Shown here: positions 13,870-51,663 of the stretch, one piece after another
How positions within the stretch are numbered: position 1 is the stretch's first letter
How the letters are laid out: each line of letters starts with the position of its first letter
From: Chara braunii
Taxonomy: Eukaryota; Plantae; Charophyceae
Assembly (NCBI GenBank): GCA_003427395.1
Contig: BFEA01000001.1
Span: forward strand, 5,455,069 to 5,519,068
Length of the DNA stretch: 64,000 bases
Direction of reading: 5' to 3'
Translations under genes and position numbers: made by a program
Notes under the pieces: model-generated
Seen by the model: the letters and a program-made list of their open reading frames with translations, nothing else
What the model was told of the DNA's origin: nothing
The model's database searches: none

Positions 13870-13935
<66 letters not shown>

Positions 13936-14080: not shown

Positions 14081-14161
14081 TGGACCATTTCTCGATTAAC
14101 GCATGTCATCCTTTTGCAGGAGCCATGCTAATCATCTCCGTATCCATCCAATTCTATCGGA
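14081..14161 (-). pseudogene. U6: U6 snRNA pseudogene (5'-truncated, A-tailed)
   Basis: Minus strand tccgatagaattggatggatacggagatgattagcatggctcctgcaaaaggatgacatgcgttaatcgagaaatggtcca aligns to plant U6; followed by an A-rich tract; gaattcctaa on both flanks. Confidence 0.85.
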
Positions 14162-15300: not shown

Positions 15301-16112
15301 CAGATCGTAAGGTCGATGATGATACCGTAAGCACGGACGGTGAATAATGACTATATATTTTAATAATTTCACCGCAAGTTAGCGCGGGTCGAAACCACCG
15401 ACTACGGGAAAAAAGAAGAAGAAGGGGGCTGGTTTGGGCATCTACGCCCCACGTAAAGTCCTGAATCTGTGCCCGTAACAGCGGTCAGATACAGCCACGA
15501 AAGCACTACCGCGGTTGATGCACAAACAAGCAAGAAGTGTCGACAGTAAAAATATATATAAGAGTCCATAATGAAGAGCGACTGAGTGCGAAGGATGAAC
15601 AAAGCAAGAGGAGGGAAGAGATGATATGGCTTCAGATAACCGAGAGGCTCATATGGTCATATGCCTATAGCGATATGGTTCATGTTCCCTATAGTCATGG
15701 CTATGACCCATGGCCGTAGCCATGACCACAGCAATGGCTATAGGGATATGACCATAACCGTGGAGAAAGGAAAGGAGAAGGAAAAGGAAAAGGGAAAAGA
15801 AAAGAAACATGACGCAGAGGAAAAGGGAAGAGAAAAGAAACATACGACGCGCTCTGATGTTAGGAATTCGATCTCAACGGCGTGCTGACAACTTCGAGGT
15901 GCCACTCCACAAAAAAAGGCGGGAAAAAATATCGTGTGTTTCAAAGGCAAAGGGCACACGCTCGAAGGAACACAGATTGCATCGAAGTACGACGGCATGA
16001 AGCCACGCGTTCCTCCCTCCCTGCTCCCCCTTTAACAACCACCCTTCACCTTCTCCCCATGCTGTCACGTTTATTTGCCCCCGAGCACACCGTTACACAA
16101 AAAAAAGCTATC

Positions 16113-16512
16113 AAAAAATGGAGGGAATCAAGTTATCGTCATCGTAGTAACAAAATGGCGGGAATCAGGGTCTCGTCATCGGTGGGGGAAAATGGCGGGA
16201 AGCAAGGTCGCGTTATCGAAGTCGAAAAATGGCGGGAATCAAGGTCTCATCATCGTAGCCAAAAANTGGCGGGAATCAGGGTCTCGTCATCGGTGTAAAA
16301 AAATGGCGGGAATCAAGGTCGCCTCATAGAAGTCAAAAAATGGCGGGAATCAAGGTCCCATCATCGTAGCCAAAAAATGGCGGGAATCAGGGTCTCGTCA
16401 TCGGTGTAAAAAAATGGCGGGAATCAAGGTCGCCTCGTCGAAGTAAAAAAATGGCGGGAATCAAGGTCTCATCATCGTAGCCAAAAAATGGCGGGAATCA
16501 GGGTCTCGTCTT
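16113..16512. repeat. 37-bp minisatellite with a 111-bp three-unit higher-order structure; core AAAATGGCGGGAATC
   Basis: Core recurs every ~37 bp from 16119 to ~16488; three linker variants cycle in order. Confidence 0.92.
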
Positions 16513-16594
16513 CATAGTCAAACTCACCAATCAGAAATACCGCCACACTCGGCAATCAGAACATGGCGGGAAAAATATCCCGGGCAATCCTTCC

Positions 16595-16658
16595 GGAACG
16601 ATACCGAGAAGATTAGCATGGCCGCTGTGCTTTCAAGGATGACACACATGAATCGAGA
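16595..16658 (+). pseudogene. U6: U6 snRNA internal fragment
   Basis: ggaacgataccgagaagattagcatggccgctgtgctttcaaggatgacacacatgaatcgaga matches the U6 ACAGAGA-box/AGC region, with a 3-nt insertion at GCGCAA; runs into (GA)n. Confidence 0.85.
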
Positions 16659-24520: not shown

Positions 24521-25005
24521 CTGAGAGTTTGTAGACTTGCACTTTCTGTAGATAATATTAATACGTATAGTTTTAAATTTAGTATGCACCTGGGCTGAAT
24601 TTTAGAATGAGTTGTATCTAAGAAATTAGTTTGCCTTCGAAAATAATTTTAGGGTTAAATTGTTAAAATTTTCACAAATTGCCTTGTGCATTTTTTAGTT
24701 TTGCAGTTTATACCTCGTAGTTTTTTTGCCAATAGTGTTTCGATCTTAGAAACATGTCGGCGTATTCCAGGGCAGGAAGGATATTACATTGCTAATAGAA
24801 TTGCTTTACAATTTTTATTTTTTGAGATTCCTTGAAGGGAGACTGGACCCGGTTTCCAGGAGCCTAAGCTGAGTATTGGCCTCAGCAGGACTGTACCAGG
24901 TTGATATGTAGGGGTGTGTTCCCGGGCGCCAGTGGTCTCATTGGAATGACATTGTTATGTTTCTCCAAAAAAAGAAAAAAGAAAAAAAAAAGGCAAAATT
25001 CAAAA

Positions 25006-25381
25006 AACGACTCAGAAGCCCCCCATCAATCCTCTTTACCTCACTCCGGCAAGACTTACTGCAGCAGAGTCACCATCTCCGTGCTGCTGTACCCTATTTC
25101 CATCCTACAAGCTAGCCCCCTCACTAGTAGGACGCTTGATATCCCACCATCTACTTCTCCCACTCACCTTTTTTTTTAGAACAAAAATATATGCACAATT
25201 CATAGAACGACTCAGACACCCCCTATCAATCCCCTGTACCCCACTCAGGCAAGACTTACTGCAGCAGAGCCACCATCTCCGCTGCTGCTGTACCCTATTC
25301 CCATCCTACCAGCTAGCCCCCTTACTAGTAGGATGTATGATATCCCACCAACTCCTCCCACTCACCTTGATTTTTTTTTTA
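25006..25381. repeat. Tandem duplication of a ~170-bp unit, each copy ending in a T run
   Basis: aacgactcaga...ggcaagacttactgcagcagag...cccactcacctt at 25006 and 25207. Confidence 0.85.
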
Positions 25382-25635: not shown

Positions 25636-27284
25636 TGTGACGAACCGATTTTTGTTCCGCGTGACTTTCTGCGTGATAACAATGAGGGGTCCTAAGCTAG
25701 GAAGGAGGGGCCAATTACGGAAGATCAGGATTGAGGGAGAATTGCATCAGTGTCTTCGCTTTTTCGTCTTTTCTCTTCGTCGCTTCTTTTCGGATGGCGG
25801 GATTCAGGGCCGGGCAAGTCCCGGGATGATCGATTGAGTGTCGCACCAACAGGACGCGAATAATAAGGGTTGACTTCACTTCTTTTCTGTTCTGTTGTCG
25901 GAATTTGGGCGCTGAGATCGCGCGAGAATTGTTGCTTCGTTCTTTTTTAATCTTTTTTTTGCATCTTGTCGAGCCCCAATGGCTCTCGGAATTTCGGACT
26001 TTCCTTTCGGTATTCGTGCTTTTTACTTTTTCTGCATTAGATAGAAATTTAGGAATTTAGGATTTTTTTTTGCCGCGCAGCGCTTGCGCGCTTCTTCTTG
26101 CGGCTGCAACGGAGCTCTGATTAGTCGGCACCCTTAATAGTGTGTGTAGCTGTAATTTTGGGCGGGCGTCATTGTAATTGTATCTTTCTTCTTGAACTTC
26201 GTCTTTTCCGCTCTCGCTTTTCCTTTTGCAGTGTCTAGCTATTTCGCGGACTTCATGCTCGGATCGATGCGTGGAGAGAGGCTACGTCCCCCACACCACG
26301 ATCTGGCCATGCAGAGCGCAGACACTCCCTCTCCTAATCCCCGTTCTAAGTCCTTGCAATTCCGTGTTCTTCGCGCATGCATGCACGTTATAAATTCCAG
26401 CTGCGCGATTAGATAGCTCTCTTAACCAGTTGTTGGAAGCTTGGGGTAGCGCGATCAGTGAGGGTTGGCTCACGAGCAAAGTAAGAGGTGAGTTGAAGTG
26501 GGAGTCGGGCGACCCGACGAGCTGGTGTCGAACGCGCGGGGTTGATGTGGGCCACGGCGGACTGTGGGCGCGGGCGAATCTGACGGGTGCGGGAGGACTA
26601 AGCGGGGTGATGACTTCGTGGGTTGGTGCGTGACGACGGACTGTCCGCATCGGAGAGAGAGAGAGAGGGAGCTGAGGTTGATGGACGTGGATTTGAAGTT
26701 TTATTTGTCTTTTCTCCCTCCTTGCTTTTGTATATAAATTTTGATTTCGGCTCAGGGCGATTCACCCGTCTCCTTTTGTTTTCGGAATCTCGGCTTGGTT
26801 TCTGCCCACACTCGTTTTGCGGTTGATCTCGATTTTGTTTATTGCGTGTTTTGTTGAATAAATGGATGAATGAATGTTATGTCTGTTGCGTGTCTTTTTG
26901 CCTGATCCTTGCCTTTGACTTGTCGTTTTGATACACTCATGAGCATAATATGAATATTTTTTTTGCGTAGTCGTCAATACTGCTTCCATTGCTGTTTATC
27001 CCCTTTTGGGTTACTGTTGTTGTTGCACCTTGCATGCTCAGGAATGAGAGTGTACGGGATCATGGAGTAATTAGGTGATGGGGTAGTGTTTGTCTAGAGA
27101 CAAGCGAGTACCTCGCGGGGATGCTTGTAAGCGCGGTCTGATTTGCTCAGGAACTTTGCCACAGGAGATCTCAGTTCCGACCTGGGACTCCACCCCCACT
27201 TTCCCAAAAATTCTTGGCACACCCCTTTTCGCATTTCCAGGCCCACATCCCACCCCGATCAGGAAGTCGCGCTGGGTGTGAGGT
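25636..27284 (+). repeat. 5' LTR, internally deleted relative to the 3' copy
   Basis: Starts TGTGACG; highly similar to 42626-44863; lacks ~600 bp and the terminal gggcgtcaca; followed by PBS. Confidence 0.9.
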
Positions 27285-27297
27285 TGGTATCGGAGCC
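27285..27297 (+). promoter_or_regulatory. Primer-binding site, initiator tRNA-Met type
   Basis: tggtatcggagcc versus consensus TGGTATCAGAGC. Confidence 0.85.
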
Positions 27298-27429
27298 CGA
27301 CAAGTGGCAGGGTTCTAGGATTCATAGCTGGGCAATCTGGCTAACAGGGGACGACCTCGACCCCGAAACGCGCATCGACGTGATCCCGTCGTCACCAGAA
27401 GCCGGTCTGTGGCTCGACGGACGGTCAAT

Positions 27430-28145
27430 ATGAATGCTAATCAGCAGAACCCCCAACAAAACCCAAATCCCGAGCAGAATCATTATCAACCCGCACCACG
27501 AGCACGGACTCTCATGACGCCCCCTGACCTCTATCTGTTTGATCATGCGCATCATCTTGCTGGAGAATGGTTGGCCACGCTTCGGGCACATCAGTATGAT
27601 GACAACGAGGCTCAGGTAAACATTCCCGCTCGATTAGGGGGGGATGCTCATCATTGGTTTAGTACCTATGTATGAGTGGATCTCCCGACCTTCGAGCGAG
27701 ATTTTTTGAATAGGTTTGATTACATCCATCCGGAACAAACACTCTTCATGATTAAAGATCGAGTCCACAAACCCCTCGAGTCTGTCACGGAATATTGAAA
27801 CCGTTTTTACCGAATGTTTGTGAAAACAGAGCGAGGTGACCAAGTAGGAAGAGATTTGTTCATCGACGGACTTTGCAGCAGAACGATGAGGGCGAAACTG
27901 CGAAAACAGTTGACCCCCATCAATCACACGCTGCAGCAGATTATGGTTGCTGCAGAAGAAATGGAGCGAAAGTTTGCTACGAGTTTCCTAGAAGGGGAAG
28001 ATTACCCTAGGGAAGGAGACTCGTCTGAATTAGCCAGGGCTAAGGCTGAGCTGGCCGCGTTGCAAAACAAGTTTGAAAACATGGGGTTTGTATCCGGACC
28101 AGTTACCTATTTAGAACAGATTACCCCTAAACGGTCAGTCCCAAA
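27430..28145 (+). pseudogene. gag: Degenerate retrotransposon gag (capsid-like region plus coiled coil), interrupted near 28146
   Basis: RLGGDAHHWF, FERDFLNRF, ESVTEY, LFIDGL motifs in one frame with two in-frame stops. Confidence 0.8.
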
Positions 28146-31100
28146 TGTGATTGCCAACGTTGTCGGCGTGAATACCCTTACAAGGGTATTCGCCCTGGTT
28201 TTTGCATGCGACAGGGAATAGGCTTGGCTTAGGATTTAAGTGTTCCGCGCGAGGCGCGGCTACGTCCGTGGTTTACGACGGCAGGGTGGTCGACTAGAAT
28301 AGAGAGTGTGTGGGCGCGCGGACTTTCGAGGCGCGCGTGATCTTTTGTTCGTTGATGACTGAAGAGTCGGCGGCGTGGTCGCCGGCCGGATTTTTGTTCG
28401 GATTATATAAAGACTAAAAGGATTATGCCTCGTTGATTAATGTGCTCACCTGTGACCTGCGCGTACGTACAGAGGATGGCATCGATAACAATGTGACTTC
28501 TGAAGGTGTCTCGGTAGCTTGGCGCATCGTGCAGTGTCTGTTTATTTAGGCGTTCGCCGAAGGTAGGCTTAGACTTGGGCTTAGCGTTATTGGTTACGAC
28601 ATTGGACTTATATGGTGGAAGTATGGGGTTCGAGGCTAGCGGGCGTCGATGCAGGAACAGTGGAGCATTGGAAGGGCTGAGGGGTTGTGGATCCCCTGGG
28701 ACTATCCTGCTTAGTTTTGTCGGGGGAGTCCGATCACGGGCCCGCTTGCAGGGCCGAGGAAAAGCATTGGAAAGTCTCGAGCCCCAGTCCCCTTAATTTT
28801 CTCATTTTTAATATTTTTTTTGGTTGGTTCTAGATTTATTATTATTACGGTTCTTTTATTTTCTGTATGGGCCCGACACGGGTTTCAGGGAGCCGCGGGG
28901 CACTGCCCTTGTCGGCGTCCTTCGGGGCATCCGTTAAAAGTTGGAACGATACGGGAAGGATTAGCCTGTTCCCTGCGCAAAGACAAAGTGTATAAATCAT
29001 CAAGAGGTCCGACAACCATCTGTTTTTCGGATACTTGACGACTGTCGGACCTCAAGAAGTCGACGGGGCCGAATGAAGGGCGCAGTAGGGCTGTCGTAGC
29101 TGAGTAGAGCAAAGGCGCGGAGCGGGGAAACGGGCGCTGCAGGAGTAACGGAGGACGAGGTAGGAATGACGTTGCCTAAAGGTGAGCGGGAGGATGGCCC
29201 AGAGAGGCGGGATCGATGGGGTCGAGCCAGGTAGCAGACGTCGGCATCAGACGGAGCGAGGCGGTGAGAGGGGAAATAAACCCGGACGGAATCTAGGCCG
29301 GGTGCAGGCGCAAAGAAGGAAGGATCGGAGATGGTAGAGAGACGGGCGGGGCGCAGTGGAGGATGAGGGGCTCGCTCGTTTATGAGTGGTAGTGGACATG
29401 AGCGAAGCGGGGCGGCCTGAAGGTCGGGTGCAGGCGCGAACGGAAAGGAGAGCGGGGCCAGAGGGTGGTGGAGCAAAGAGGAAAAGCAGCGAAAGGCGTG
29501 TGCAGCGGATGAACCTGGTCGAGGAACCACGCGAGGTGCAAGTAGCGAAGGGAGTGTTGTGGGAATGGGCGACGGGCAGCTGCGGGGGCGCTGAGGCAGC
29601 AGCTACGGGCGCTAGGTAGGCGGAGTAGAGGGGAGGCGAGGAGCGACGGGCAACGGGAAAGGGCGTGCCCGACGGGGTGACAAAAATCGGGGATGAACCG
29701 GGACGGGATGACGCGGCGGGTGCATGCGGGGTATGGACAAAGGAGCAGAGTGTGGCGGAGCTACTCAGAAGGCGGGGCAGGAAAGGGATTGCTCGCCCGT
29801 TTCGTGATGAAAACGGGCGAGGGAAGATGCTAAGCCAACGTTTTGGAGGGCGGCGACTTCAAATCTAAGGTTAGTTTTAGTAGTAGATTGGTAGATTAGG
29901 AGTTAGGAAGAAAAGAATGGTGCGCGAGCTATGGTAGGATGACGAAGACAGGAAGGGGGAGGAAATGAGTATCTCGCTCGTTCCCGAACGGAATCGAGCG
30001 AGGAGAGGATCGTTTCGGGGGTTTCGAAGCCGGGCGAGCTGATTAGTGAAGTTAGTTTGGTGTAAGATTAGTAGAACTAGAGTTAGTAGAGATAGGGGGT
30101 GCGTTGAGCCATGGCGGTGAGGTAGAAGACGGGTATGGTAGAGGAGAGAAATCATAAGCTCGCCCGATCCTGAACGGATTCGGGCGATGTAAAACTCGAA
30201 ATTGGAGTTCTGGAGGGGGGCGAATGTGATAGTAATGTTAGTTTTAATGTTAGATTAGTAAGGGAGAAACTGTCCGAGAAAAGTGTGGCGCTGAGGAGTG
30301 GTGATGGTGGGAATGGCGGAAAGGAGAAAGTGATAGCGTGCCGGGTTTTTAACAAAATCGGGCGCAAAGAGATGAGAAATGGGGGTTCCAAGGATAGGCG
30401 AACCCGATGGTGCAGTCTGATCGAGGAGTCAATGGGAGGGTTTAGTACTGTGGGAGACGTGAGCTGCACGAAGTAGAAACGACCTTGCAAAGTGACTGCA
30501 CCTGTTCGCATCCTGGCGGAAGATCCATTATGATATGGACCAGTCTATCGAGGGAGGTAGAGTGAGGCCGGCCGAGCCGTGTGCACAGAGAGAGAGAGGT
30601 GGGGAGAGCTAACGCTTACGTCGTGGCCGGCTGAGGACCAGTGATGTCGGGTGAACCGAAAGTCGAGCTATGGCCCCAAGCTTAAGAAGCCAGGGGAGGT
30701 TGGCGGTGTACCCGCCCATGTTCTGGCCGTAGATTCCTTCAGTGTTGCTTATGCGGTCAGTTGGAAGCAGTGCGGGGCTAGTCGTGGTAGTGGAAACTCA
30801 CTTGCTGGCTTATTGGGGAAGGTGACCTTCCCCGACCCACCGAGCGGAGCAGCAGCAGGAGAGCAGCAGGTTTAAAGATTACCAGTCGGTGGTGCATGAC
30901 CAGTCTGCGGCAGGGATAGCGTGAGCCAGTTGCTGGGGACTCACCTGTTGATAGTATGCTGCTCATGCGATCGGGTGAAATGTATGGTTGTTCACGGCTG
31001 GCGAGGGCTGCTAACTTCTGCTGTGGCGCGACGGGTGAATAGACACAGTTGATTTGCGGTTGCCAATGCCATGCCTTGTGGTGCATGCCGTGATCGATAG

Positions 31101-31983
31101 GGCTCATGCGCATTGCTGGTATAGGCAGTGCTGTATTTACTGCAGATTACTGTGTTGTTGATGGTACGACTGTGCGAACTGCCGTACGATCGCTGCATTA
31201 CCGTGCTTGCTGCGTTTCGCTGCACGGCTCACCGAGTACCCCTATATGTCGAAATAGAGCACGCGACGCTGTGCACTGCTGAGAACAACTGTTTAGGGCC
31301 TCGTGGCTGCGGTTTCAACAGGGAGACGAAGGTATGCTGTAAGAGGAATGATCGGAGGCACGAAGGTAGATTACTGCTACGGTTTGGGGAGTTGCCAGAG
31401 AGTCAAACAACTCACAGTTTGACTTGGGTTTGGCCAAGCTATTACCTTTGGCTGCCATTGTGGGGCCCTCAGGCGCATGAAGGTAACGAGGCCCTCTCCT
31501 GCGAGTCTGTGAGCACCCTTCTTGGATTTGAGAGTCTCAAACCCGCCTCTTTCTGCCTTTCTAAGTCTAAGACTTAGTCTAGTCTATGGTTCTGAGAGGA
31601 AGGCGGCAGGCGGGATTGCAACCCGTAATCCGCGCCAAGGCCTCTGTGGGAGGTTATCCCCACCGATTGTTGGAGCTCTGCCGAAACTTAGGAGGAGTTC
31701 TGGAGGCAGGGAATTGTAAGGTAACCATTGCTTTCCCTTATAAACCCAGTATAACCCCTATCTATACACCTCCCTACGTATCAGGTGATTGGGCTGTATG
31801 CAACACTTACTTTGACTTTTTGGATTGACTTTCAGAACACAAACCAGACTAACTAAAGGAATGCATGTATAATGGCAGTTTCAGTTTCTTTGGTTGCCTG
31901 AAAGCAGATTATCACAGGGGATTGCATCAGAGGGAAGGTTGGGAGGAAGACAATTTTGCTTGCAATTGAACGAGTCTTATAGG

Positions 31984-32830
31984 GTCAGGCATCGTTTCTA
32001 AGATGAATGGCCTGACTGCTGTGTTTTGTTCTGTTTTCTGAAAAACCAAGCATTGTTTCTAAGATGAATGACTTGGTTGCTGTGTTTCTTTAATTGTGCC
32101 AGGCATTGTTTCTAAGATGAATGACCTAGGTATTTATTTCTAAGGGGTATTGTTTGCTTGACTTTTGAGGGTCAGACATTGTTTCAAAGACAAATGGTCT
32201 GGTCGCTGTTTACTTGGGTGGCTTCTGAACAATCTCTGGGTCAGGCCCAGGGTACGCTGCCTTTTTGTGTGCTAAAGACAGGGGAGCTGAATATTGTTTC
32301 TAAGACGAATGACTCATCTCTCCTTGGGTGTTTTGCTCTGAGGGAGGATTCAAGCCAAAGGACTAAACATTGTTTCTGAGACGAATGGTCTAAGTCTGAG
32401 GCCTCAGGACTATAGCGAGAACAAAGGAATAAGATTCCCTATAATGATATATATATATATATATATATGTATCTATATGCGAATAAGGCTAGTCAGGCAT
32501 TGTTTCTAAGACGAATGGTCTGGCTTTAGCCTTATCATAAGCAAAGAGAGTATAATCAAGAGTTATAACTGAAGGTAACCTGGGCAGGCTGAGCATTGTT
32601 TCTAAGATGAATGGCCCAGCCCTACGCCCTCCTTTTGAAGACTAAGGTGCAGAAAGATATATATAACTTGGCTATTTAAACAGTTCAGGGCGACTAAGCA
32701 TTGCTTCTAAGACGAATGGTTTAGTCACATGCCCAATGAAGAGAAAAGTAGTTGTGCAACCTGTTCGTGTATAACTAAGGCGGAGGGATGACATTGTTTC
32801 TAAGACGAATGACCAACCCCAATGCCCTAT
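31984..32830 (+). repeat. Array of ten stem-loops with conserved 20-nt apex CATTGTTTCTAAGA(C/T)GAATG
   Basis: Motif starts at 31990, 32051, 32104, 32177, 32292, 32368, 32498, 32594, 32699, 32792, each enclosed by its own inverted repeat. Confidence 0.92.
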
Positions 32831-33127
32831 GTAAGCTGGGTATAAAGGGTTAAATCATTGAAAGACTATGAACTATTGTTTGCTAAATTGACTCGGGGTG
32901 GCGAGAGTACTTACCTTTGTGGTTTGGCTTGCATGTGGTTGAGTGAGGTTACTATTTGGTCTGAGTTTCAGTTGACAGGTAGTTGCTTTAGAGACTCGCC
33001 ACGTGCTAGAGCGATAGGGGTTAGCTCAATTTCTGCATTTTCTGGGCTAAGTTTTTTTACTTAGATCAATTCTCGTATTTTAGGAGATCTTTTGTTATAC
33101 TTGGCTTTGTATAAATCTTGCTAAGCT

Positions 33128-33425
33128 ATTTTCCCTACGGGAAATGCTGCCGAAATTTCTGCAAATCCAAGGAGTTAGTCAAATCTTGACTTGTCTAAGT
33201 TCGACTTGTCTAAAGTTTGTATATGACTTAGTAAAAATCTGGAAAGTCTCATTTTCTAAAGGGAGTGCTGCCCAAATTTTGCTAAATCAGGGAGTTAGAC
33301 AAAAATTGAACTTTTGAGAGTCAAAGACTAGTTTTTGTTTCATATTTGCGCTGATATAAATTATGAAAAGACACTTTTCTTACGGAAAGCGCTGCCGAAA
33401 TTTTCTCAGTTTAAAGGAGATAAAT
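33128..33425 (+). repeat. Three ~120-bp-spaced units containing GCTGCC(G/C)AAATTT
   Basis: Motif at ~33147, 33267, 33391, each preceded by ttttc..gg and followed by ggag. Confidence 0.8.
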
Positions 33426-35175
33426 TATGATTTGACAGGTGGCGATTCTGGTAATCCACTCTGTATAGGGGAGATTATGTCAGGGGCTACCTTTGCTTTG
33501 GGCACTTCTTAAAGGTAGAGTCATACATAATCAATTAGAAGGATTTTTGGTGAGAATGTGTTATTGAGTTGTGTTCTCCATACACTTATGATTTTAACAT
33601 GGGGATTGACATGTCTTGTGTTACAGGTCTTCTAGATCGATTGATTCAGGACTTGGACTAGATTCAGCTTGATCCTACAAGGATCATCTTCTGTTATCAC
33701 TGATAACAGGTCGGTTGCCGATTCGTCGGTTTGCGATTCAACTCCAATCCACTACTGTCACTCAACCTAAAGGCTTTAGCCCTGTGGTTTGAATTGTTTC
33801 ATTGTGTTTTCACCCGGACTTTATTGAATGACCATTTAACTAAAGTACTGAGTTCTTATTTTGGGGAGTTGCACAAGAGTGAGGTTTGTATGACTAAAGC
33901 GAGGGGTATGAGCATAGAGAATGGTTGAAGTTGACCCCGTGTAGTGCGTTGACTTTTGTTGGGTCTTTGACGTGATTGCAGGTATGAATTGTGATTCGGG
34001 CTTTGGATGAGACTGTCTGCGATTACATACATATATGGCTGGAAGGAGTCCCACTGTGACTGTGAGAAGTGATCGTCCTATATAAATAAGCCTTATGTAC
34101 ATTTGTATATGTGTCTTAGGCATGCGCGCAACTTATTGTGATCGTGCGCAAGGGTTAGCCAGATTCTGGCTTGAGAGAAAAAGGGAGATCCCCTTTTATC
34201 CTTTGCTTCTTAGAGATTTTTATGGTCGGACGTTGATCCTGAGCTGTGATTCAAAATCATTGTCCAGGACATCCCACGCCCTAGACTCTGCAGGGAAGGA
34301 ATCTGCCTCCGTGCAGAGCCTATTTGCCCCACTCTGCAGAGAGTGCAGAAGGGGGTGTGTGGTCTTCAACCGCGCTTGGCGGTTGTCCATGGCGAGAGAT
34401 TAACCCTCAAGGCGCTTGTCACCCGACACTTGAGTGTCGAATACGACCCTCGAGATTAACGAGGACCGCACGATTATGGGCACTATATAGTACGCCATCA
34501 TTGCGACTGCTTGCGTACGCTTGCATTGCGAGTCGATATGAGTAGACCCTGCGTCCGCACAGTTTTATACTAAGTCTCGCGCGTGACGCCTACCCGATTT
34601 CCGCCGTGGAAAGTTATGGGATGACCACTGAAGGGGCTAGGAGCGTTGTCGCGTTGTTTGTGTTGTGTCGTTTCGTGTGTATGCGTGTGTGTTCCTTTTG
34701 TGTGTTTGTAGAGTGGTGTGCGCGTAGTGTGTGGGATACGTCCTAGTCGACCGACGACGAATCGCGCTTGGAACTTCAGCCCCCCAAGATGCCGGTTCGC
34801 GTGTGGGTCCGATAGGCGTATTACCGCGCGTACCCTCTATGCTACAGCGAACGAGAAACGCCCTCGGTTGGTCCACCTCTGCGATTGCAACCGAGTAACT
34901 TTCGTATTGTGGACTGGTAGCTCGGCGGGGATACGCCCACCGAAGGGACGTGACAACTCCCGTAAGGTGGAGGTAAGTTATGCCTCGCGTAGGCCCTATC
35001 CTGTCGTAGGGGCTCGCGAGAGGTATAGCTGACGCACTCGGTCGGAGCGGCCTAAGGAAGCTCCATTTGTGTGTTCGTGACGAGGTTGGTCCAACTCCTG
35101 CGTGACGTGGCCGAGAGGGTCCCGCGCTGCTACATGCGGTGTCGGGCCGATGCGTCCGACAACGTACCCGCTCCC

Positions 35176-38100
35176 ATGATGACAGTGTCCCCACCCCCGA
35201 TCGAAACCCCCTCATGACGGAATGAGTTTTTCGCCTTGCTCGAACTAACCAAAACATTGGTTAATTTGATTCAGGAGAGTAAAAAGGAGCAACGGGAACA
35301 CAATGCTCGAATCGAGGCGATGATGAGATCGATGCGACCCATCACAGTGTGTGTCGCGCCGATCCAGCACGGATTAGCTCCAACCTACCTCCAGTAGGGA
35401 TCCCGGGCAATCTGAATGTCTGTTACACATGTCACCAACCAGGGCACGTAGCCCGGCATTGCCCGCATCGACCCCCGCCACAACGAGTCGGAGTTACACC
35501 GGTAGCTGCAACACCGATCGCTAACGGGCCAGGACGGGTAGGAGCTTTGATGGAAGAAGTAGAGGGAAGCGGAACCACGATAGCAACAATGGAGGAAGCC
35601 ACGAAGCTTATTCCATTACATCAGTATGTAACACTTGGATATCCGGGGCTTGGGATGATTGGTACAATTAAAAAAGGAAAAGTGGCGGAGTAGCGACCTT
35701 CTCCAGGAGAGATGGAGTCGGGAGGACCCACTTTCGTCATGGGGGAAATCGACGTTCTAAACATCGTACGAGCCTTAGATCATTGAATCCCCCTTCCGAT
35801 CGGTCATTTGCTTTCGATATCAGAACAGGCCAACGAACGTATGATGCAGCACTGCAAAGCAAATCGAAAAGGGTTTGCTCTTACCCGAGCAGCAAACACA
35901 AAAGCGAAAGGACCAACACCAAACGAAAGTAACGTAGGCACTTTCGATCCCATACGCATAGGACTAATCCAAAAAGACGATCACTTCCTGCGGATTAAAC
36001 CCATCCCATGAAAATCCGCGGAATGCGACATCGAGGTATGGGGAATTCCATATAATGCTATCATCGATTCAGAAGCCGCTGTGTTAGCTATCTCCTTACG
36101 GGTAGTGGAGAGAGCAGGAAGAAAGAACGATCTGATTATACTTACAGAAAAGATCAGCTTGTTTCAGCAGACGAAGAGAAGATCAAAACAGTGGGGCGAA
36201 TGACTAACGTTGCCTTTCGATTAGGGAAGGTACATGCGTTGGGAGACGTCGTGGTTCTATATGTTAATACTTACGACGTGCTTTTTGGTTTTCCCGCCCT
36301 GGTAGCACTTCGCGTCAATCTGAACTTTGAAAGACGATCGATTGTCGTCCGAAATACCAGGGGAAAACCCTATGTTGTACCGACGAGACTGACTCTTCGT
36401 ACTACCGCTAACATAGCCCCGCGAGGTTCTCCCGCGATGACGGGGATTCTCTGCGTAATTACCTGGAACAACGGGCGGACATCCAAAGACGCGGACAACA
36501 GTGATGATGACGATTCAGTAATCCTGAGGATGGCGCAACAATGTATTCACTATCCCGCGCTATAGACAAATGTAAAAGTCTTGAGCCGGATTATCCAAGA
36601 TTTGCAAAGAACACAGGCAATGATTATGGGAGAACCTCTCGTACAGATTTCAAGGATGGTCGATTCTTTGAAACCCCCTCGAATCCTGTACGAAGGGATC
36701 TCCCCTCTTCTCGCCCGATACGATGACAAAAGACACTACTACGATATAACGAATCTCCCAAAATCCCTTTTGTCACCTGCAAAAGAGATTCGATTGTTAC
36801 GCTTAGGGGCAAAGACCAACTGTTTGGAACCCCCTAAGCGCCTCGAAAACGGACTCGGGATCAAGATCGCAACGAAACCTGTGTCGTGGCAAGACATTCG
36901 AGATGGAGTAACACCGGAGGAATACGTGGCCATTTGAGAACAAGATGCACAGATGATGGCCACGGTGTTTTCTTGGCGATCAGATAACTCATTCATCTTC
37001 GCGCCCCCGCCAGAGAGCACCAAGTGGGTGAATACAAAACATATCGTTGTAAGGATAAGGGATGAGTTGTATGAGTTGCACGTACCCCGATACGTACCTG
37101 ATGAGATCCACCACCTAATCGCAGACATTCTGAAAGAGTACAAAGGAGCGATTAGTGTGACGGACACAGATATTGGACTGTCATTAGTCATACAGCACGA
37201 GATCTAGACGGAAAATCATTCCCCGATTCACTGCAAACGTTACAGATATTTCCCTATGGAACGAAAAAAAACTCTCGAACAGATTCGAAAATTCGAAGCA
37301 AGTGGTTGGATCGAACCCGCCACCGGACAATGGTCGTTCCCGGTAGTATTGGTACCGAAAAAGAATGGGTCGATTCGCATATGCATTGATTATCGCAAAC
37401 TGAATGACATCACGATCAAACATGTGTACCCCCTTCCCAGGATTGATGATTTACTGGATGCGATTGGGTGTGCTAATTATTTCAGTAAGTTTGATATTCG
37501 GCACGACTTTCATTACATTCTGGTTAAGGAGGAAGATCGGTCGAAGACGGCCTTCGTACTATTTGAAGGCACGTGGCAGTGGGTCCGGTGTCCGATGGGT
37601 ATCTGCAACACGCCTGCCACGTTTCAACGGGCGATAAACGTGACGTTTCAGAACTTCGTCAACAAGACACGGCTCACGCAGGGAATGATAAACTTCTGCG
37701 TCATCGTATACATGGACGACTACCTGGTTTATTCGGAGACCTATCACAGGCATGCACAGCATATCGAGTGGACGTTGGGAGCTCTAAGAGATGCTGGCTT
37801 CAAGATCGCGCTCGAAAAGAGCGAGTTTTTCCTTTCGGAAATTTCGTTCTTGGGCTACGTAGTGACACGTGGAGGACTGCGGCCTGACTCAAGAAAGGTC
37901 GCGGTGATGAAGGAAGCTCCTGTCCCCACGTCACTGACGCAGGTTCGAGCCTTCTTGGGCTTAGCCTCGTACTATCGTCGTTTTATTAAAGGCTTCGCCG
38001 CGATTGCACGCCCTTTAACGAACCTATTACGAAAGGACCAGCCCCTTAGTTGGGACGCAGAGTGCAAACGGGCCTTCGCGACCCTTAAAGAAGCTTTGGC

Positions 38101-38635
38101 AACAACACCTATTTTGATCCGGCCGGACCCCGCGAAGCAGTTCATTCTCATCACAGACTGGCAGTCGGTGGCTATTTCCGCTATTTTAGCGCAGAAGGGG
38201 AACGACGGCCGCAAACACGTCATTGAATATGCGTCACGAACGGTGTCAGACGAGCGGAGAAATTACTCAGCCCCACAAGGCGAATGTTATGCAGTAGTGT
38301 GGGGAATCCAACACTTCCATCCGTATCTGTACGGACATAAGTTTCTCTTTGTCACCGATCACGGGCCCTTGCTAGCGCTGAAGCGACTCACTAATTACAT
38401 GGGCATGATTGGAAGTTGGGCGGTGCGCCTACAGGAATACGACTTCGACATCATCCATCGAAAGACGGAGAGGCACGGTAACGCTGGCGAACTGACACTT
38501 CTGCATCGACCAGCTAAAGTGCCTAAGGCGGAAGAGATCATCCCATGGAAGGAACCGGAATCGGCGAACGGACCCAAGTATGGACAAGGGGCAGTCCTTC
38601 CACGTGGCAAGAAGCAGGCAGGTGGCCATGGGTGA
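35176..38635 (+). pseudogene. pol: Ty3/Gypsy polyprotein remnant: zinc knuckle, protease, ~270-aa spacer, RT, RNase H
   Basis: CYTCHQPGHVARHC; AIIDSEA; intact 459-aa stretch 37256-38635 with [39 protein letters not shown]. Confidence 0.95.
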
Positions 38636-40355
38636 CGGAGGTAACCCTACCACTCCTCTTTCTCCCCTCTCCTCCTCATCTCTCCTCTCCCTGCCTGATA
38701 AATTTTGTTATTTTTGCGAAGCAATTTCCCGTGTATACCCGATCTCTATGCGCCCTAGCGGGGAAGGGTATGCGGAATGGGTAGACTGTCGACAGTGTGT
38801 CACATGAGCCCATGGCTCATGCATTCAATACCGAAATAACAGTAAACCTTGGCTGTGCCCCTTGTGTCGGGTTGATAAGATCCCGACTGAGGCTCGCTTT
38901 TTAGATGCCACATCAGAAGGGTTAAAGAAGCCCGGGAGGCTTAGAAGGGCCGAAGTATGGACGAATATCGCCTTGATTGCTACTCTAGTGGGTAACCTCC
39001 TCCAGGACTTCACCAAGGAAGATCGGAGGAGGGCCAATGAAAGGGCTCGGGACTACCGCTGGAATGAAGGATGGTTGGAAAAACGGAAAACGGATGGCAG
39101 TGGGATTTAGATGGTAGTGCCGCACCCGTTCATGAGGTATGACTGAGTGAAGACAGCGCATGAGGAAACGGCTGCCCATTTTGCCGTACGGATTACGAAG
39201 GCGGCAATCGACAAAAATGAGTGGTATTGGTCCAATATTCGTAACGATGTGAAGTTCATCGTCGCGAATTGTTAGGTCTGCTCTGCTGACAAGGCACCGA
39301 TTCAACCGCCAAGATCGATAGTACCGACGGTAGTTGAACGGCCTTTTCAAAGGGTTAGCATGGATACTACTGATATTGTGATGCCCCCTGGACCCAATAG
39401 CTGCGAATATTCAATCCTACTAGTATTCGTGGACCATTTTTCGAAATGGATCGAGGGGTATCCCTTTCGTACGCGACAGGCAGCCGAAATTGCACGATAC
39501 TTCAATCGGTTTTTAGGGATGCACCAGGACACGGAGGAAATTCTGACCGATAATGGGGTGGAATTCAGGGGAGAAGTCTTGAGGAATCTGGTCGTACACG
39601 ACGTTGCTATCCGGAATACCGCACCCCACATGTCGCAATCTAATGGGCTGGTAGAAAATGCAAATAGAGTGATAAAGACTGCGCTACGACGCGATATCGC
39701 AGCGCGGGACCCAAGGCCCTGGCCCGATATCGTTGATCACATCCTGGCGGTCCATCGAGGGACGCCCCACGAATCGACGGGCCTGATCCCTTTTCAATTA
39801 CGGACCAACAGTGTGGCCTGTGTTTCGATACCCAGCCTCCCGGACGAATCGTCGTTGAACTGACGGCCTACGAGGGCCACGGTTCGAGACAAGGCCAAGC
39901 GACATATGGAATTGATGGAAAGGTCCCTACCCCGATTAGCCTGAAAGCGCCAGAAAATGACCGAGTTGGCCCACGGCCGGCAGGTCCGTAGTTACAAGGC
40001 CCGGAACGGGAACGCGGGTCCGCGGCCCTAGTATAAATTGGGGGACTTGGTGCAGGTGAGGAAATGTGCTCGCCAGGGAAAAGCGCCACGATTCTTCAGG
40101 CAATTTCGAGTGATCGAGCTTGGCCCAAACGGAGTGAACACCGTGCGCCTCGTGTCAGAGGTATCGGGAAGCCGATCGACGTGGTCGATCATTCGCCACG
40201 TGTCCTATCTACGTTCCCTCCCTTCCTCCCCATCTCTTGCATCTTCTTCCTCTTCTTCCTCTTCCTTCGCTTCAAAAGAAGACGATGACTCTCTATCTCC
40301 TTCATCTTCTCCTACATCTCTCACCCCCTCTCATACCTCCTCGCCATCGCCATGA
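38628..40355 (+). pseudogene. PHD finger-integrase ORF (single frame, several point-mutation stops)
   Basis: PHD C4HC3 at 38706-38867; HHCC AHEETAAHF...C*VC; DDE SMD, TDNG, NGLVEN; GPY/F-like GDLVQVR; Ser-rich tail; no chromodomain. Confidence 0.9.
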
Positions 40356-40834
40356 GTTTTCTCACGGAGCGAGCTCTCGGTGATCACCTGCTGGCGCCAC
40401 GTGGCTACATCTCGGCGATCCGGCAAGTTCATCATTTGCGCTTCACTTTAGATCTTCTACGGCTCGCGCAGTTCTTCTGTACCACGGGGGTATACGCAGC
40501 AGCAGAGTTCCGATTTGCGGGCAATCATCGGGTGGTTATGTTGGCAGAAGCGGTAGCTGTCCATCGACGGTCAGCCCTAGGGATTAGCCACGTGTCCACT
40601 GCCATTTCCTTCAGCGGCGATATCAGCGCGATCAGTCCGCTGTGGCATACCGCCATCCGGACAACGTTACAGACGTGGGGTCAGCAATTGGCAGCAGAGT
40701 GGAATCAATCGCTCACGCGCCACGGGGACAATCTTGTCCTTACTGACGGCATCGAACTCAATGGGATTTAAGCGACCCAGCACGAGCCGACGGTGGTGCT
40801 TCCGGAACTCATCCCCTTCCAACGTCCCCAATGA
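40352..40834 (+). CDS. Accessory ORF A of unknown function (139 aa to TAA at 40771; extends to 40834 if that stop is a mutation)
   Basis: ATG overlaps the integrase stop (ATGA); protein-like composition. Confidence 0.5.
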
Positions 40835-41802
40835 ACCGCTCCCAACTCTCCACCTTCGTTCTCCCATCTCTCTTTCCCATCTTCTGGCAGTTTAGTCTTC
40901 ACCCTCGCTTCTCCGTCTGTTTGGAATCGTTGGCTGTCCCCCTTCTCGATCCAAGGCAGTGGGAGCGGTGGTGTGAACATTTCGTCGATCTTTCAATGTG
41001 CCTGGTCGGAGTGCGGCTCACATGGACAAGGGACGAGGAGCACCTCGCTTGGGTTGAGTACATGGAGCTACTGATCATCAAGGCCTGGCGGACGGAGGTG
41101 GAAGGCAATCTTCGTAGATTCCTGTTTGGATCCGTGAGGCCCGACCATCACCAGCTAATCGTGCAGGAACTCACGGTTCCTCTCGCGCAGTTGGTTGACG
41201 ATCTCCCCCTTGATATCGTCTCGCAGAGCGACGAAAGCCCGGTCTCGCACGTCCTCACACGAACGCTGACGCCGTACCTTCAGTGGTCGGCGTGCTTGGA
41301 GGAGTCGGGAAGCGGCCGCGACCAGCCATCACAACGAGGCTACCTGGACCCGCGGAAAATAATCGATCTCGCCTTCTTCCAGGACCGAACAGTCTCCGAA
41401 AACGAGGAGCTAGCAATAGAAGAAGAAGTGGAAGAAGAAGAAGGCGCAGCAGAAGAAGAGGAGGAAGAGACACCGGAAGAAGGCAGTTATAGTGAACATA
41501 GTGAGGGAGAGCAGAGTGAGGACGAAGAAGAAGAAGAGGAAGACGAGGAAGAGGAAGAGTTGGAGCTGGAGAAATCCGAGTGGAAAATCTCGGCGGAAGA
41601 AGTAAAACGAATGGACGCTCAGACGGAGGACCTCGAGGCAGCGTGCAAAAGAGAAGAGATTGTGGCCGGAAAGCGACAGCTGGAATTCGCACGCGGAGCA
41701 AATCTGCCCATCTCCGACGATCCAGGCAAAGATCCGAAGCCGCCCAAGCCCGAAGATGGGGACCCAGCTGCTGAGACTTCGAGCGCACCGGCCAGGCGGT
41801 GA
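40831..41802 (+). CDS. Accessory ORF B, 323 aa, globular N-terminal part and long acidic C-terminal tract
   Basis: Uninterrupted ORF in an otherwise decayed element; Trp-rich N-half; poly-Glu region. Confidence 0.65.
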   Translation: MNRSQLSTFVLPSLFPIFWQFSLHPRFSVCLESLAVPLLDPRQWERWCEHFVDLSMCLVGVRLTWTRDEEHLAWVEYMELLIIKAWRTEVEGNLRRFLFGSVRPDHHQLIVQELTVPLAQLVDDLPLDIVSQSDESPVSHVLTRTLTPYLQWSACLEESGSGRDQPSQRGYLDPRKIIDLAFFQDRTVSENEELAIEEEVEEEEGAAEEEEEETPEEGSYSEHSEGEQSEDEEEEEEDEEEEELELEKSEWKISAEEVKRMDAQTEDLEAACKREEIVAGKRQLEFARGANLPISDDPGKDPKPPKPEDGDPAAETSSAPARR

Positions 41803-41860
41803 TGAAGTCGATCCCCCTCCCCCTCCACCTCCGACCGTCTACAAGTTCGAGCCCGTACCG

Positions 41861-42388
41861 ATGCGGGCCATCAGGCTTCGTCCGCGGTCCTTATCCCGTC
41901 GTCCCCTTGATTACTTCACCCTCCGCCAGATCACCACCCTCGTCACCTTCCCTCGCAATCCCTTCCCGATCGATACCTTCCGTTTCTTCTACGCCACCCG
42001 TCTTGTCGTCACGGTTCACCCCCATCCTTCGACCCGGTGTGCCCTCCCCGACTTCTGTCTTCACACCCTTCTCTTGAGTGTCGTGTGGCGAGGCCACAAT
42101 ATCGTCGAGGTTTATTGCATGATCACGGGGACTATCCCCGCATGCGAGAACCACGATCGATTCCACGCGGCACTCTTCCGAACCTTCGCCACCCTGTACC
42201 CCGATTATCTTGCATCCCTCCCTCATAGTGGTAATCGATTCCCTCGCTTCCACCGGATCGTCCGATACCAGGAGCTTTCGGAGACAGTCGAGGGATTGGA
42301 ATGCTTTCTACCACCACTTCCGACTAACCCACCCCCTCGCCATGCCCCCATGTATCGTCTTCCTTTTCCCCTTTCCTTAGGACATTGA
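41861..42388 (+). CDS. Accessory ORF C, ~175 aa, unknown function
   Basis: ATG at 41861 within open frame 41660-42388; aromatic-rich, protein-like sequence. Confidence 0.45.
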   Translation: MRAIRLRPRSLSRRPLDYFTLRQITTLVTFPRNPFPIDTFRFFYATRLVVTVHPHPSTRCALPDFCLHTLLLSVVWRGHNIVEVYCMITGTIPACENHDRFHAALFRTFATLYPDYLASLPHSGNRFPRFHRIVRYQELSETVEGLECFLPPLPTNPPPRHAPMYRLPFPLSLGH

Positions 42389-42625
42389 TGCTTGGTTGAT
42401 TGGTGCGTGTCACGGATAATCCCCTCCTGGGATTGAAGAGAGCCCCTCTTGCGGAACTCGTAGGACAGAGTCTTGTATGCCAGGTTGGATGACTTCCACA
42501 CTCCTTTACATTGTAACTAGCAACAAAGAAAGCTTCGCGTGACGATCGATTAGAGAGATCGACACGTGTCATGATTCAAGCAAGCAGGAGCTTGCTTAAG
42601 ATTGGAACCCCCTGGGCGTCACATA

Positions 42626-44863
42626 TGTGATGAACCGATTTCTGTTCCGCACGACTTTCTGCGGGATAACAATGAGGGGTCCTAAGCTGGGAAGGAGGGG
42701 CCAATTACGGGAGATCGGGATTGAGAGAGAATTGCATCAGTGTCCTCGCTTTTTCGTATTTTCTCTTCGTCGCTTATTTTCGGATGGCGGGATTCAGGGT
42801 CGGGCAAGTCCCGGGATGATCGATTGAGTGTCGCGTCGACAGGGCACGAATAATAAGGGTTGACGTCACTTCTTTTTTGTTTTGTTGTCGGAATTTAGGC
42901 GCGGAGATTGCGCGGGAATTTTTGCTTCGTTCTTTTTTAATCTTCTTTTTGCATCTTGTCGAACCCTAATGGCTCTCGGAATTTCGGACTTTCCTTTCGG
43001 TATTCGTGCTTTTTACTTTTTCTGCATTAGATAGGAATTTAGGAATTCATAATGTTTTTTTTGCCGCACAGCGCTTACGCGCTTCTTCTTGCGGCTGCAA
43101 CGGAGCTCTGATTAGTCGGCGCCCTTAATCGTGTGTGTAACTGTAATTTTGGGCGGGCGCCATGGTAACTGTACCTTTCTTCTTGAACTTCATCTTTCTC
43201 GCTCTCGCTTTTCCTCTTGCAGTGTCTACCTATCCCGCAGACTGCATGCTCGAATCGATGCGTGGAGAGAGGCTACGTCCCCCACGCCGCGATCTGGCCA
43301 TGCCGAAAGCAGGCGCTCCCTCTCCTAATCCCCGTTCTAAGTCCTTGCAATTCCGTGTTCTTCGCGCATGCATGCACGCTATAAATTTTGGTTGCATGAT
43401 TAGATAGCTCTCTTAACCAGTTGTTGGAAACTCGGGGTAGCGCCATCAGTGAGGGTCGTCTCACGAGCGAAGTAAGAGGTGAGTTGAAGTCGGAGTCGGG
43501 CGACCCAACGAGCTGGTGTCGAACGCGCGGGGTTGACGAGGGCCACGACAGAGTGTGGGCGCGGGCGAATCTGACGGGTGCGGGAGGACTAAGCGGGGTA
43601 ACGACTTCGTGGGTTGGTGCGTGACGACGAACTGTCCGCATCGGAGAGAGAGAGAGAGGGAACTGAGGTTGATGGACATGGATTTGCAGTTTTCTTTGTC
43701 TTCTCTCCCTCCTTACTTTTGTATATAAATTTTGATCTCGGCTCAGGGCGATTCGCCCGTTTCCTTTTGCGGCGTGGTTTCCGCCCACACTCGTTTTGCG
43801 GTTGATCTCGATTTTGTTTGTTGCGTGTTTTGTGGAATGAATGAATGTCATGTCTGTTGCGTGTCTTTTTGCCTGATCCTTGCCTTTGACTTGTCGTTTT
43901 GATACACTCATGAGCATAGTAGGAATATTTTTTTTGCATAGTCGTCAATACTGCTTCCATTGCTGTTTATCCCCTTTTGAGTTACTGTTGTTACTGCACC
44001 TTGCATGTTCAGGAACGAGAGTGTACCGGATCACGGAGTAATTAGGTGATGGGGTAGTGTTTGTCTAGAGACAAGCGAGTACCTCGCGGGGATGTGTGTA
44101 AGCGCGATCTGATTTGCGCAGCCTACACGCATCCACGCGCGCCGATTCGCGTCCATTGACGAACTTGACACCTTCGATATCGGGTAGGTGGGAACTTTCA
44201 CTGCAATGATATTATACCGAGCTCTTGGGATTCGGAGTACTTTGACCCTTGGGTGACAGAATGTATTAGGCAGAGATACCCGGAATTCCCCTGCCTAACA
44301 GAGAATCGATTGTGCCCTAGAGAACCTCGGTTTCGTCGTTATCACTACCCGTTTCCCTCCCTTCCGTTTCCTCCTCCCGTATCACCAACTCATTGTAGTC
44401 CTGTGGAATTCCATCGCCCCGTACTGGCCCCACACGCCCTGCGGAAATTGTCGGTGACGCGGTAACTGATGAGCCCCTGAAACCAGGGGGCCTAATCCAA
44501 ACGCGCGACGGCAGACGCCACTTGGCTGCCCCCAAAGGCCCGACTCATCAAAATCACAGCCATCTCGGGCAGACCTCTCCCCGAACCACCGCCCCCAAAA
44601 CAGACAGATCGGACGGCCTTGAATGCACCGCTCATGCCATCTGCCTTATGCTGCACGACATAGAATGCCAACAGACCGGAAGTAACTCGCCCTAAGCCTT
44701 ATTGCAACTATGCCCCTGAAGCTTTGCCACATGAGATCTCAGTTCCGACTTGGGACTCCACCCCCACTTTCCCAAAAATCCTTGGCACACCCCTTTTCAC
44801 ACTTCCAGGCGCACATCCCACTCCGATCAGGAAGTCGCGTTGGGCGTGAGGTTGGGCGTCACA
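42626..44863 (+). repeat. 3' LTR (2.24 kb, TGTGA...TCACA)
   Basis: Inverted termini; matches the 5' LTR apart from an extra segment at 44122-44717; no PPT upstream. Confidence 0.9.
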
Positions 44864-46495
44864 GTCTGGTGCGCCGGACCGGATTGTCGTGATTTCACAT
44901 GGTGACAACGCGCTGGGTAGTGGCGTGAGCTACCGGTCAGTGGTGGCGGGGTGGAGTGCATGGCGAGGGAGTAAGGGATGGTGGCTACGATATTGGAGTG
45001 CAGCGCCATCTCCTATGCAGGCAAGATAAAAGATGACTAATTGGTTTGGTGGGCATGGAAGAGGTTTGTCGGGCGACTCCATATTGGCAAGAGGGCTACT
45101 TTCCCCTTTTCCTCAACAACAAACTGCGGCGACTCACCAACGGGTTTGGCGAGGAGGTGTCGCACTGTTTCCCTTCCTCCTAGGGGGATTGAAGATGGTC
45201 GTTGTAGTTTTCAGTGCTAGTAATGTCGTAGAACCTGGTGGTAGCAATAGGAGGGAGGGTGTCTCTCCTCCCCTGAAGACGGAGGGGGAGGGAATATGTA
45301 AGTTGAGGTTGTTGAGGAAGTGGGGACGGAGGTTTTATGGATAGTTTTAGGGTCAGAGTCATGCCCATGAGTGGATCGGTCAACTCACACTAAAAAAGTA
45401 TTAATAATCTACTCAATTGCTCTAATTCATCTTTAGAGTTATCTGATTTTGATGATTGATTGGAAGATGAATCTTAATTTTGTTTTTGCTGTGATCTCTC
45501 AATTTTATCTGCGTTATTCTGATTTTTAAATTTGCATGACGAAATTCTTGTTGTATATCCACAAGATAACAACCTAAATTTTGATCGTTTTGACTGCTTC
45601 TGAAAAAACTCCCGGAAAAAAATTCAAGTAAAGATTCGTAAATCATATTTTGCTCCGATATAAAACCATTATTTCAAAAATTCAACTTCCAAAGTGGATG
45701 ATCCATCTGTATTCCGTTTTTTTAATTTTTAGTTGTCATTATTTGAAACTACTTGATTTTTCTCTTGACTCTGATGCCATAATCAGTAATTCTTAAATCT
45801 ACAATCACAATAGTATACCACCGTTACCTTGTTATGGTTCGTGAGGAGTTTCAGTCTTGTCGTTAGTTGCGGGCCAGGAGTTTTGAGGATGCACCAGTGG
45901 GGGGGACGGTTTCTGGTTGGTGATATGGCATCCTGCTGGCGAGGAGGGCTAGCTAGTGGGATTGGATTAGGGTATAGCCGCATCTGGGATGGTGGCTCAA
46001 CTGTTATTAGTCTTGTCGGAGAGAGGTCAGCGGTTAGTAGGGGAGTCGGTGTTGGGCTTTTTTCGGTGAGGGCATTTACTCGACTTCTGTTTTTTCCTCT
46101 TCTTGTGAACTATGGGTGGAGGAGGTCGGCTCGTCATGAGAGGAGGAGGAGCTGAGGAAAAATGTGTGGGCGCGTCTGCTAAATCCATCCTGGTTTTGCT
46201 GCCATCCGATTTTCCTGCAACAATGGTCGGGCGATCTCCCGCAGTTGTCTGACAGGTGTTTGTGCGGACGTTTTACACTTCTCGTGTGTTAGTGCAACCT
46301 TGCGGCGGGTCGAATTGTGAGGTCCCCAACCTCTTTCAGTTGATTTTTGCAATAAATAAGTTCGTATTTCCCAAAAAATCAAAATAAAATAATGTTTCGT
46401 GCGCATGTTACCGCAGTGACGACGAAGGTCGAAAGTCGAGCAGAACGCGAGCGCAAAATTCCGCGTCGTCGGTCGACTGCCCCACACACTTCATG

Positions 46496-51612: not shown

Positions 51613-51648
<36 letters not shown>

Positions 51649-51663
51649 AAAAAAAATCAGAAA

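Follow-up and report, generated by a model that had tools for sequence, protein, structure and literature searches.

Within 64,000 nucleotides of Chara braunii DNA (the window), a short motif recurs ten times, each time at the tip of its own predicted hairpin, and this raises the question of whether the array is an RNA structure kept by selection, to which element it belongs, and what it may do there. The motif, CATTGTTTCTAAGAYGAATG, has ten matches in the window, all on the plus strand between 31990 and 32811 (starts at 31990, 32051, 32104, 32177, 32292, 32368, 32498, 32594, 32699, and 32792); five copies are exact, four carry one mismatch and one carries two, while shuffled sequence yields a mean of 0.02 matches and none of 100 shuffles reaches ten. 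Along the plus strand the hairpins lie at 31983–32017 (hairpin 1, loop TAAGAT at 31999), 32044–32078 (hairpin 2, loop at 32060), 32097–32131 (hairpin 3, loop at 32113), 32170–32204 (hairpin 4, loop at 32186), 32285–32319 (hairpin 5, loop at 32301), 32361–32395 (hairpin 6, loop at 32377), 32491–32525 (hairpin 7), 32587–32621 (hairpin 8), 32692–32726 (hairpin 9), and 32785–32819 (hairpin 10). Each measures approximately 35–50 nt, with modelled stems of 12–15 bp interrupted by bulges, and together they spread over 850 nt with spacers of 33–110 nt, so the ten copies and the spacing reported in a preliminary description of this DNA are both confirmed. Searched with a covariance model of 11 hairpins, the window yields no additional copy scoring more than 14 bits.

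The arms of each hairpin match their own partners better than those of their neighbours. Taking 7-bp flanks and one unpaired purine 3' of the motif, 59 of the 70 positions are paired, 52 of them in Watson–Crick fashion, whereas 20,000 random flank sets give a mean of 28.3 pairs and a maximum of 44. When the 3' arms are permuted among the copies, a control that preserves the shared ancestry of the units, the number falls to 47.4 pairs (100,000 permutations, p = 2e-5). The inverted repeat private to each copy, the single purine, and the retention of pairing beyond shared ancestry had all been proposed earlier and hold under these controls, and the stems are more complementary than shuffled flanks, a comparison on which the earlier reading had been made to depend. 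In alignment A2, 21 cells are changed on both sides against 9.4 ± 2.5 after shuffling (0 of 500 shuffles, a control that ignores relatedness), and all seven outer stem pairs show such two-sided changes. The stems had also been called freely covarying; the pairing is indeed kept, but the arms are not unrelated sequences, as their mean pairwise identity among copies is 44%, and the units are thus of common origin.

A second copy of the array region is provided by a metagenome contig, L003. Motif scans returned two single matches in viral contigs and 19 in metagenome contigs, L003 being one of the latter; the other 20 of the 21 are isolated, with no second copy nearby, and were treated as chance matches rather than homologues. 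A conserved 23-mer is absent from the viral and prokaryotic collections scanned. L003 is 78% identical to the window over 31447–31909 and 75% over 32486–32750, and it carries ten hairpins at largely matching positions, with outer stems and spacers still recognizable. In eight of them another apex, with the loop TAAGTT, takes the place of the window apex. One, within the frame of hairpin 7, keeps the outer stem and the TAAGAT loop on a different upper stem; one, the counterpart of hairpin 8, has the window apex on a covaried outer stem; and the counterpart of hairpin 9 lacks the apex. The covariance model, applied to 9 of 22 sources, matched the hybrid L003 hairpin at E = 0.07. Complete hairpins of L003 also stand at the place matching a short plus-strand stem without an apex at 32236–32250, which is probably a degenerate unit, and near that of a small TAAGA-containing plus-strand hairpin at 32426–32438, possibly another. 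The lower stems of L003 have 71 of 80 positions paired, whereas the full set of 40,320 permutations gives 54.4 (p = 2e-4, in a register chosen after viewing the folds).

Comparison of the two arrays redefines the conserved unit. The sequence TAAG(A/T)(C/T) closed by three Watson–Crick pairs is found in 9 of 11 instances on the array strand of L003 and in 0 of 5 on the other, and in 8 of 54 on the plus strand of the window, all eight within the array, against 0 of 50 on the minus strand; taking both arrays together, five different 3-bp closing stems lie beneath it. The array thereby displays a repeated loop motif on sequence-variable stems in several copies. The 20-nt apex had been taken as the near-invariant element, and this does not survive the comparison, as L003 shares only the UAAG(A/U)Y hexaloop. 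From these two arrays, which are readable as continuous sequence, we infer a common unit in which a hexaloop caps a 3-bp stem, with a U-containing 5' bulge beneath it and a position-specific lower stem at the base; the bulge varies with apex type, 1 nt against 4–5 nt. Closure of a 12-nt apex by CATT/AATG, as first proposed, is a possible fold but one of several: RNAalifold on the window apex alone prefers a longer helix with a triloop, which is at least as good as the hexaloop, and the two folds score alike on alignment A2, while the comparison with L003 favours the hexaloop.

At least two apex types, and probably three or more, coexist in one genome. At hairpin 10 many other copies have a TAAGTT-type apex (loose ends at 32773 and 32822), and the apex of hairpin 9 is missing from some contigs and reads as well as from L003. 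Loose ends at hairpin 9 (22 contigs and 51 reads, at 32696–32697) and in one contig at hairpin 3 suggest, from separate fragments, a third apex type whose loop reads CAUGGC; A2, G4 and the final pyrimidine would then remain as the invariant part of the loop, two or three letters in all. Many contig joints fall between hairpin positions, so the number of units varies among copies. The simplest cause of apex replacement along the array with the lower stems kept would be template switching during reverse transcription.

Variation in reads and contigs of other copies, for which 40 of 210 variants were considered, indicates how the structure has been maintained. Five of the 40 revert at least five of the six departures of the window copy from the 20-mer; both apex changes of hairpin 4 and the loop change of hairpin 6 are private to the window copy. 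Nine of the 40 lie on modelled pairs, where six restore pairing, two keep it, and one, at 32786 with approximately 40% of X1 depth, breaks it unless the partner also changes. Among the same 40, at least six of the 12 non-pairs of the window copy are repaired in other copies, including the two broken pairs of hairpin 3, and so are at least five of the seven A–C oppositions. Since the flaws of the window copy are repaired elsewhere, selection acted in the active family. Six changes over 200 motif positions (3%) approximate the decay expected since insertion, because the LTRs of the older host element described below differ by 9% (91% identity over 1,516 columns). Covariation and repair in other copies together support the earlier proposal of a multivalent structured RNA element under selection, and we regard the array as very probably a selected RNA structure.

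The element that carries the array is not the one that surrounds it. Around the array lies a decayed Ty3/gypsy retrotransposon on the plus strand, with a 5' LTR at 25636–27287 (pieces 91% and 93% identical to the 3' LTR), TGGTATC at 27285, which we take to be a primer-binding-site-like sequence, the N-terminal part of gag at 27430–28160, which contains stops, the C-terminal part of gag with zinc knuckle, a protease-like region, RT–RNase H and integrase at 35166–39863 (from Pfam and translation; broken by stops and frameshifts), extra ORFs A, B and C at 40289–42388, which belong to the host element and not to that of the array, and a 3' LTR at 42626–44863, interrupted at 44122–44721 by about 600 nt of inserted sequence. 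ORFs A/B/C have no Pfam match; ORF B (40747–41802) has 384 relatives, and among the 120 listed, 119 are named, all Chara braunii gene models, the remaining one being that of the window itself. The last GGCGTCACA of the 3' LTR (44855–44863) is missing from the 5' LTR (27280–27295), and the same nine letters stand directly before the 3' LTR (42615–42626), with no evident purine tract; the host element itself may be rearranged. Just upstream of it lie two 195-nt direct repeats (86%) at 24983–25377, with inverted partial matches near 45930–46040.

Between the two parts of gag lies a non-coding insertion of 7,001 nt (28161–35161, plus strand) that contains the array. Its ends, TGTCGG...CCGACA, give it TG...CA termini with a short inverted repeat, as expected for a solo LTR, and it is flanked by a duplication of ACGT at 28157–28160 and 35162–35165, whose 4 bp fall within the 4–6 bp of solo LTRs. 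As in a solo LTR, no terminal direct repeat was found within 28161–35161. None of its 20 ORFs of at least 80 aa has a Pfam match at cut-off. Relatives of the N-terminal host gag number 58, none of which matches inside the insertion, and 42 of them, as predicted gene models, pass without a break into the reading frame taken up again near 35164. The array is therefore outside the host element, as its insertion splits a gag that is continuous in relatives, and the tie to host Gag or to ORFs A/B/C suggested in the preliminary description is not supported. We also considered a 7-kb gag intron at 28.2–35.1 kb, which is rejected by the continuity of the relatives, the TG...CA ends and the duplication. 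Most likely the insertion is a giant solo LTR from a family other than that of the host, in what we infer to be plus orientation. Solo LTRs of non-chromovirus Ty3/gypsy elements are likewise described with TG...CA ends and a 4-bp duplication, and the ACGT site agrees with the NCGN preference that Phygy is reported to show (PMC6317226). Phygy elements are described there as short, unlike the insertion, and non-chromovirus LTRs are quoted as reaching about 5 kb, in a survey that capped LTRs at 6 kb, a range exceeded by the 7.0 kb found here (PMC6317226); assignment to a lineage requires the coding part, of which the window contains none.

Several other features were observed inside the insertion. 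Summed contig depth is 9,000–275,000 over 31.4–35.1 kb, against 700–15,000 in the pol and extra ORFs of the host, which points to an abundant family, although summed depth is not copy number. Over 28736–31405 (plus strand) the depth is only 36–288, against 9,000–275,000 downstream, and BLAST gives no match between this part and the upstream part of L003; it is presumably a variable U3 or a secondary insert. The block conserved with L003 at 31447–31770 (plus strand) contains a TATA-like TATAAA at 31739 and has a predicted fold, including a GGATTGC-AACCC-GTAATCC hairpin in both the window and L003, and is possibly a separate RNA element. A smaller second array at 33120–33430 consists of three units about 120 nt apart, each with GCTGCC(C/G)AAATTT after a small hairpin. 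A U6-like piece at 28917–29021 (plus strand; E = 1.1e-6, below the gathering score) has an altered ACAGAGA box and is one of four U6 snRNA-like pieces in the 64 kb, the others being at 14074–14179 (minus), 51646–51748 (plus) and 16595–16630 (plus); two of the four pass the Rfam gathering score, one is a fragment, and they are likely U6 retrocopies or U6-headed repeats. Directly upstream of the fragment at 16595, units of 37 nt that share a fixed AAAATGGCGGGAATCA part are repeated in tandem over 16074–16559. ARAGORN finds no tRNA.

On which strand the hairpins would be displayed is indicated by folding and by RNA reads. In 18 of the 20 hairpins of the window and L003, the fold is more stable on the plus strand. 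The preliminary description had noted several stem mismatches as G–U pairs on the plus strand; in the window copy these show no strand preference, with 7 G–U against 6 A–C in the outer stems; in L003 the ratio is 22 to 3 (p = 0.02 against composition) while off-register controls are also skewed (21:6, 13:3, 18:7), and G–U excess was accordingly downgraded as proof of strand. In the oligo-dT runs X6 and X8, first mates lie on the minus strand at 31406–31939 (13.7 against 0.45 and 22 against 0), which, provided the libraries follow the usual convention, points to plus-strand RNA, and the conserved block at 31447–31770 holds most of the strand-biased reads. The bias of X8 continues over spacers near 32650–32720 (6.5 against 1.3; 11.9 against 0) and at 32825–32894 (9.0 against 0), and is lost beyond 33008 (0.9 against 0.9), where DNA depth is higher. 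On the array itself X8 has 26 reads, 24 of them less than 95% alike and almost all from other copies, with most motif bins empty, and X7 (889 reads) maps to both strands and is richer in opposite-direction reads over the array, for example 45 against 2 at 31985–32019. No read-end pile-up marking a start or poly(A) site is seen in these sparse RNA reads. The X6 and X8 reads, sparse and with assumed strandedness, suggest that a plus-strand RNA ends just past the array, which would place the array in R. At 32908–32918, TACTTACCT is kept in reads of other copies; on the minus strand it reads as a consensus 5' splice site, whereas the plus strand resembles the 5' end of U1 snRNA.

The array is apparently undescribed. 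Rfam at the gathering score gives no match to the array and none of TAR or RxRE type, and at E up to 10 over 27200–35300 no TAR/RxRE, IRE or ribozyme match. No description was found in the literature searched, which did not extend to the repeat annotation and supplements of the Chara genome paper, where the family may be named; as first noted, no named family is found in either resource. Retrozymes are non-coding plant LTR retroelements with structured RNA, and the insertion is likewise a non-coding element, probably of LTR type, with structured RNA; this identity, or that of another self-cleaving ribozyme, was rejected, as Rfam finds no hammerhead or other ribozyme and paired LTRs are lacking. 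An iron-responsive element has a CAGUGN loop on a 5-bp stem with a bulged C, and was rejected for an array whose loop is UAAG(A/U)Y on a 3-bp stem without Rfam match. Likenesses to a tRNA T-loop/B-box mimic, the Q-beta operator and the IRE were set aside, as they are not preserved in the apices of L003.

Closer parallels are found among retroviral and plant elements. HTLV RxRE and HIV TAR are protein-binding stem-loops inside retroviral LTRs (PMC3504254; PMC12789967), and the array is similarly a structured cis element in a probable LTR, where it may likewise be in or close to R; RxRE-1 is described as adjoining the poly(A) site and assembling multimers of a virus-encoded protein (PMC3504254), and TAR as lying in R and recruiting Tat (PMC12789967). 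In contrast, RxRE is a single 254-nt structure (PMC3504254) and HIV-1 TAR one hairpin (PMC12789967), whereas the array comprises ten or more separate hairpins of 35–50 nt over 850 nt and has no sequence or Rfam match to either. Coronavirus SL5 resembles it in repeating UUYYGU hexaloops on sequence-variable stems, for which a role as packaging signal has been proposed but is described as unproven (PMC10927501). SL5 differs in having two or three loops of another sequence on a four-way junction in an RNA virus (PMC10927501), while the array is linear, is in a retrotransposon, and has exchangeable upper stems. The ENE of Arabidopsis Evade, a plant LTR retrotransposon, is a structured element repeated close to the 3' end of the RNA, as the array may be, and is described as requiring U-rich internal loops flanked by G–C pairs (PMC12501189); an ENE or dENE was rejected, as the array has a one-sided bulge of 1–5 nt and a conserved apical loop.

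What does such an array do? Ten repeats of one fixed loop on stems free to vary are the trace that sequence-specific multivalent binding of a protein would leave, and our analysis favours, at a probability of roughly 0.45, a multivalent docking site for an element-encoded protein that serves RNA export or packaging. The hairpins would display the UAAG(A/U)Y loop many times on the plus-strand RNA of the element, and a protein of the family itself, such as an autonomous partner's Gag nucleocapsid or one of its accessory proteins, is predicted to read the loops so that the RNA is exported and packaged. That partner, with its reader protein, would lie outside the window, which holds no coding part of the family. 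Template switching by reverse transcriptase between look-alike hairpins could then spread one apex type along the array and change the number of units. An element-encoded export protein has a precedent in the LTR retrotransposon Cer1, namely CERV (PMC10309623). A signal in R would also be present on solo-LTR transcripts, which would make R a poor place for selective packaging. It is a more speculative, and on balance improbable, extension of docking that the loops form a swappable RNA address code, in which each subfamily rewrites all its tips by template switching in step with its own RNA-binding protein.

Next in standing to a docking site for export or packaging, though unlikely, is a TAR-like role, in which hairpins on the nascent RNA recruit an element or host factor for elongation, for reading through the poly(A) site of the 5' LTR, or for escape from silencing. 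The array begins about 240 nt after the TATAAA common to the window and L003, and its modelled shape, with a U-containing 5' bulge, a short upper stem and a hexaloop, resembles HIV TAR; on the other side, the insertion has several TATA-like sites, and one such as that at 34079 would place the array in U3, the bulge is unlike between apex types (1 nt against 4–5 nt), and no Tat-like protein was identified. Rather less probable is a host RNA-binding protein that binds the UAAG loops to stabilise, localise or transport the RNA in large algal cells. The UAAG core is common to apex types on unrelated stems, as expected for one constant reader, and UAG-binding proteins of the hnRNP A/B or Musashi type are known; yet the probable CAUGGC apex has no UAAG, and a short single-stranded motif needs no wholesale fixing of one 20-mer along the array.

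Doubtful to a further degree is an aid to strand transfer, in which hairpins in R give loop–loop contacts that bring new cDNA to the RNA 3' end, their loops being alike through conversion. A loop-kissing model has been proposed for Tto1's first-strand transfer (PMC3061985), and the many contig joints between hairpin positions would fit mis-registered transfer, but any loop pairs with its own cDNA, so that persistence of UAAG despite replaced upper stems is unexplained, and identical loops would favour the wrong register. We give a similarly low chance to an origin at the DNA level or by neutral processes, either a cluster of transcription-factor sites in the LTR or decayed tandem duplications whose inverted repeats are kept by template-switch repair. 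Repeat arrays are described as frequent in LTRs and non-coding parts of large gypsy elements (PMC6317226), the arms betray the common origin of the units, and the G–U evidence is weak; against this, a double-stranded site needs no covariation between own partners, repair would not keep one loop unchanged on five stems, and wobble pairs are left in place, unlike the A–C oppositions, most of which are repaired in other copies. Processing into small RNAs, also raised at first, is unlikely for hairpins of this length, as plant miRNA precursors are longer and their stem must hold a 21-nt duplex.

How plant and algal LTR retrotransposons choose their RNA for export and packaging is, to our knowledge, poorly known. 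If the loop is a mere host-protein site or by-product, the array is of specialist interest only, and if the address code were true, a subfamily would export or package its own transcripts, leaving aside those from thousands of defective relatives. Replacement of the tip along a whole array, with each lower stem and spacer keeping its identity, is an unusual form of concerted evolution. The array offers a small, testable candidate signal, together with a natural mutational series of apex types on positionally matched stems.
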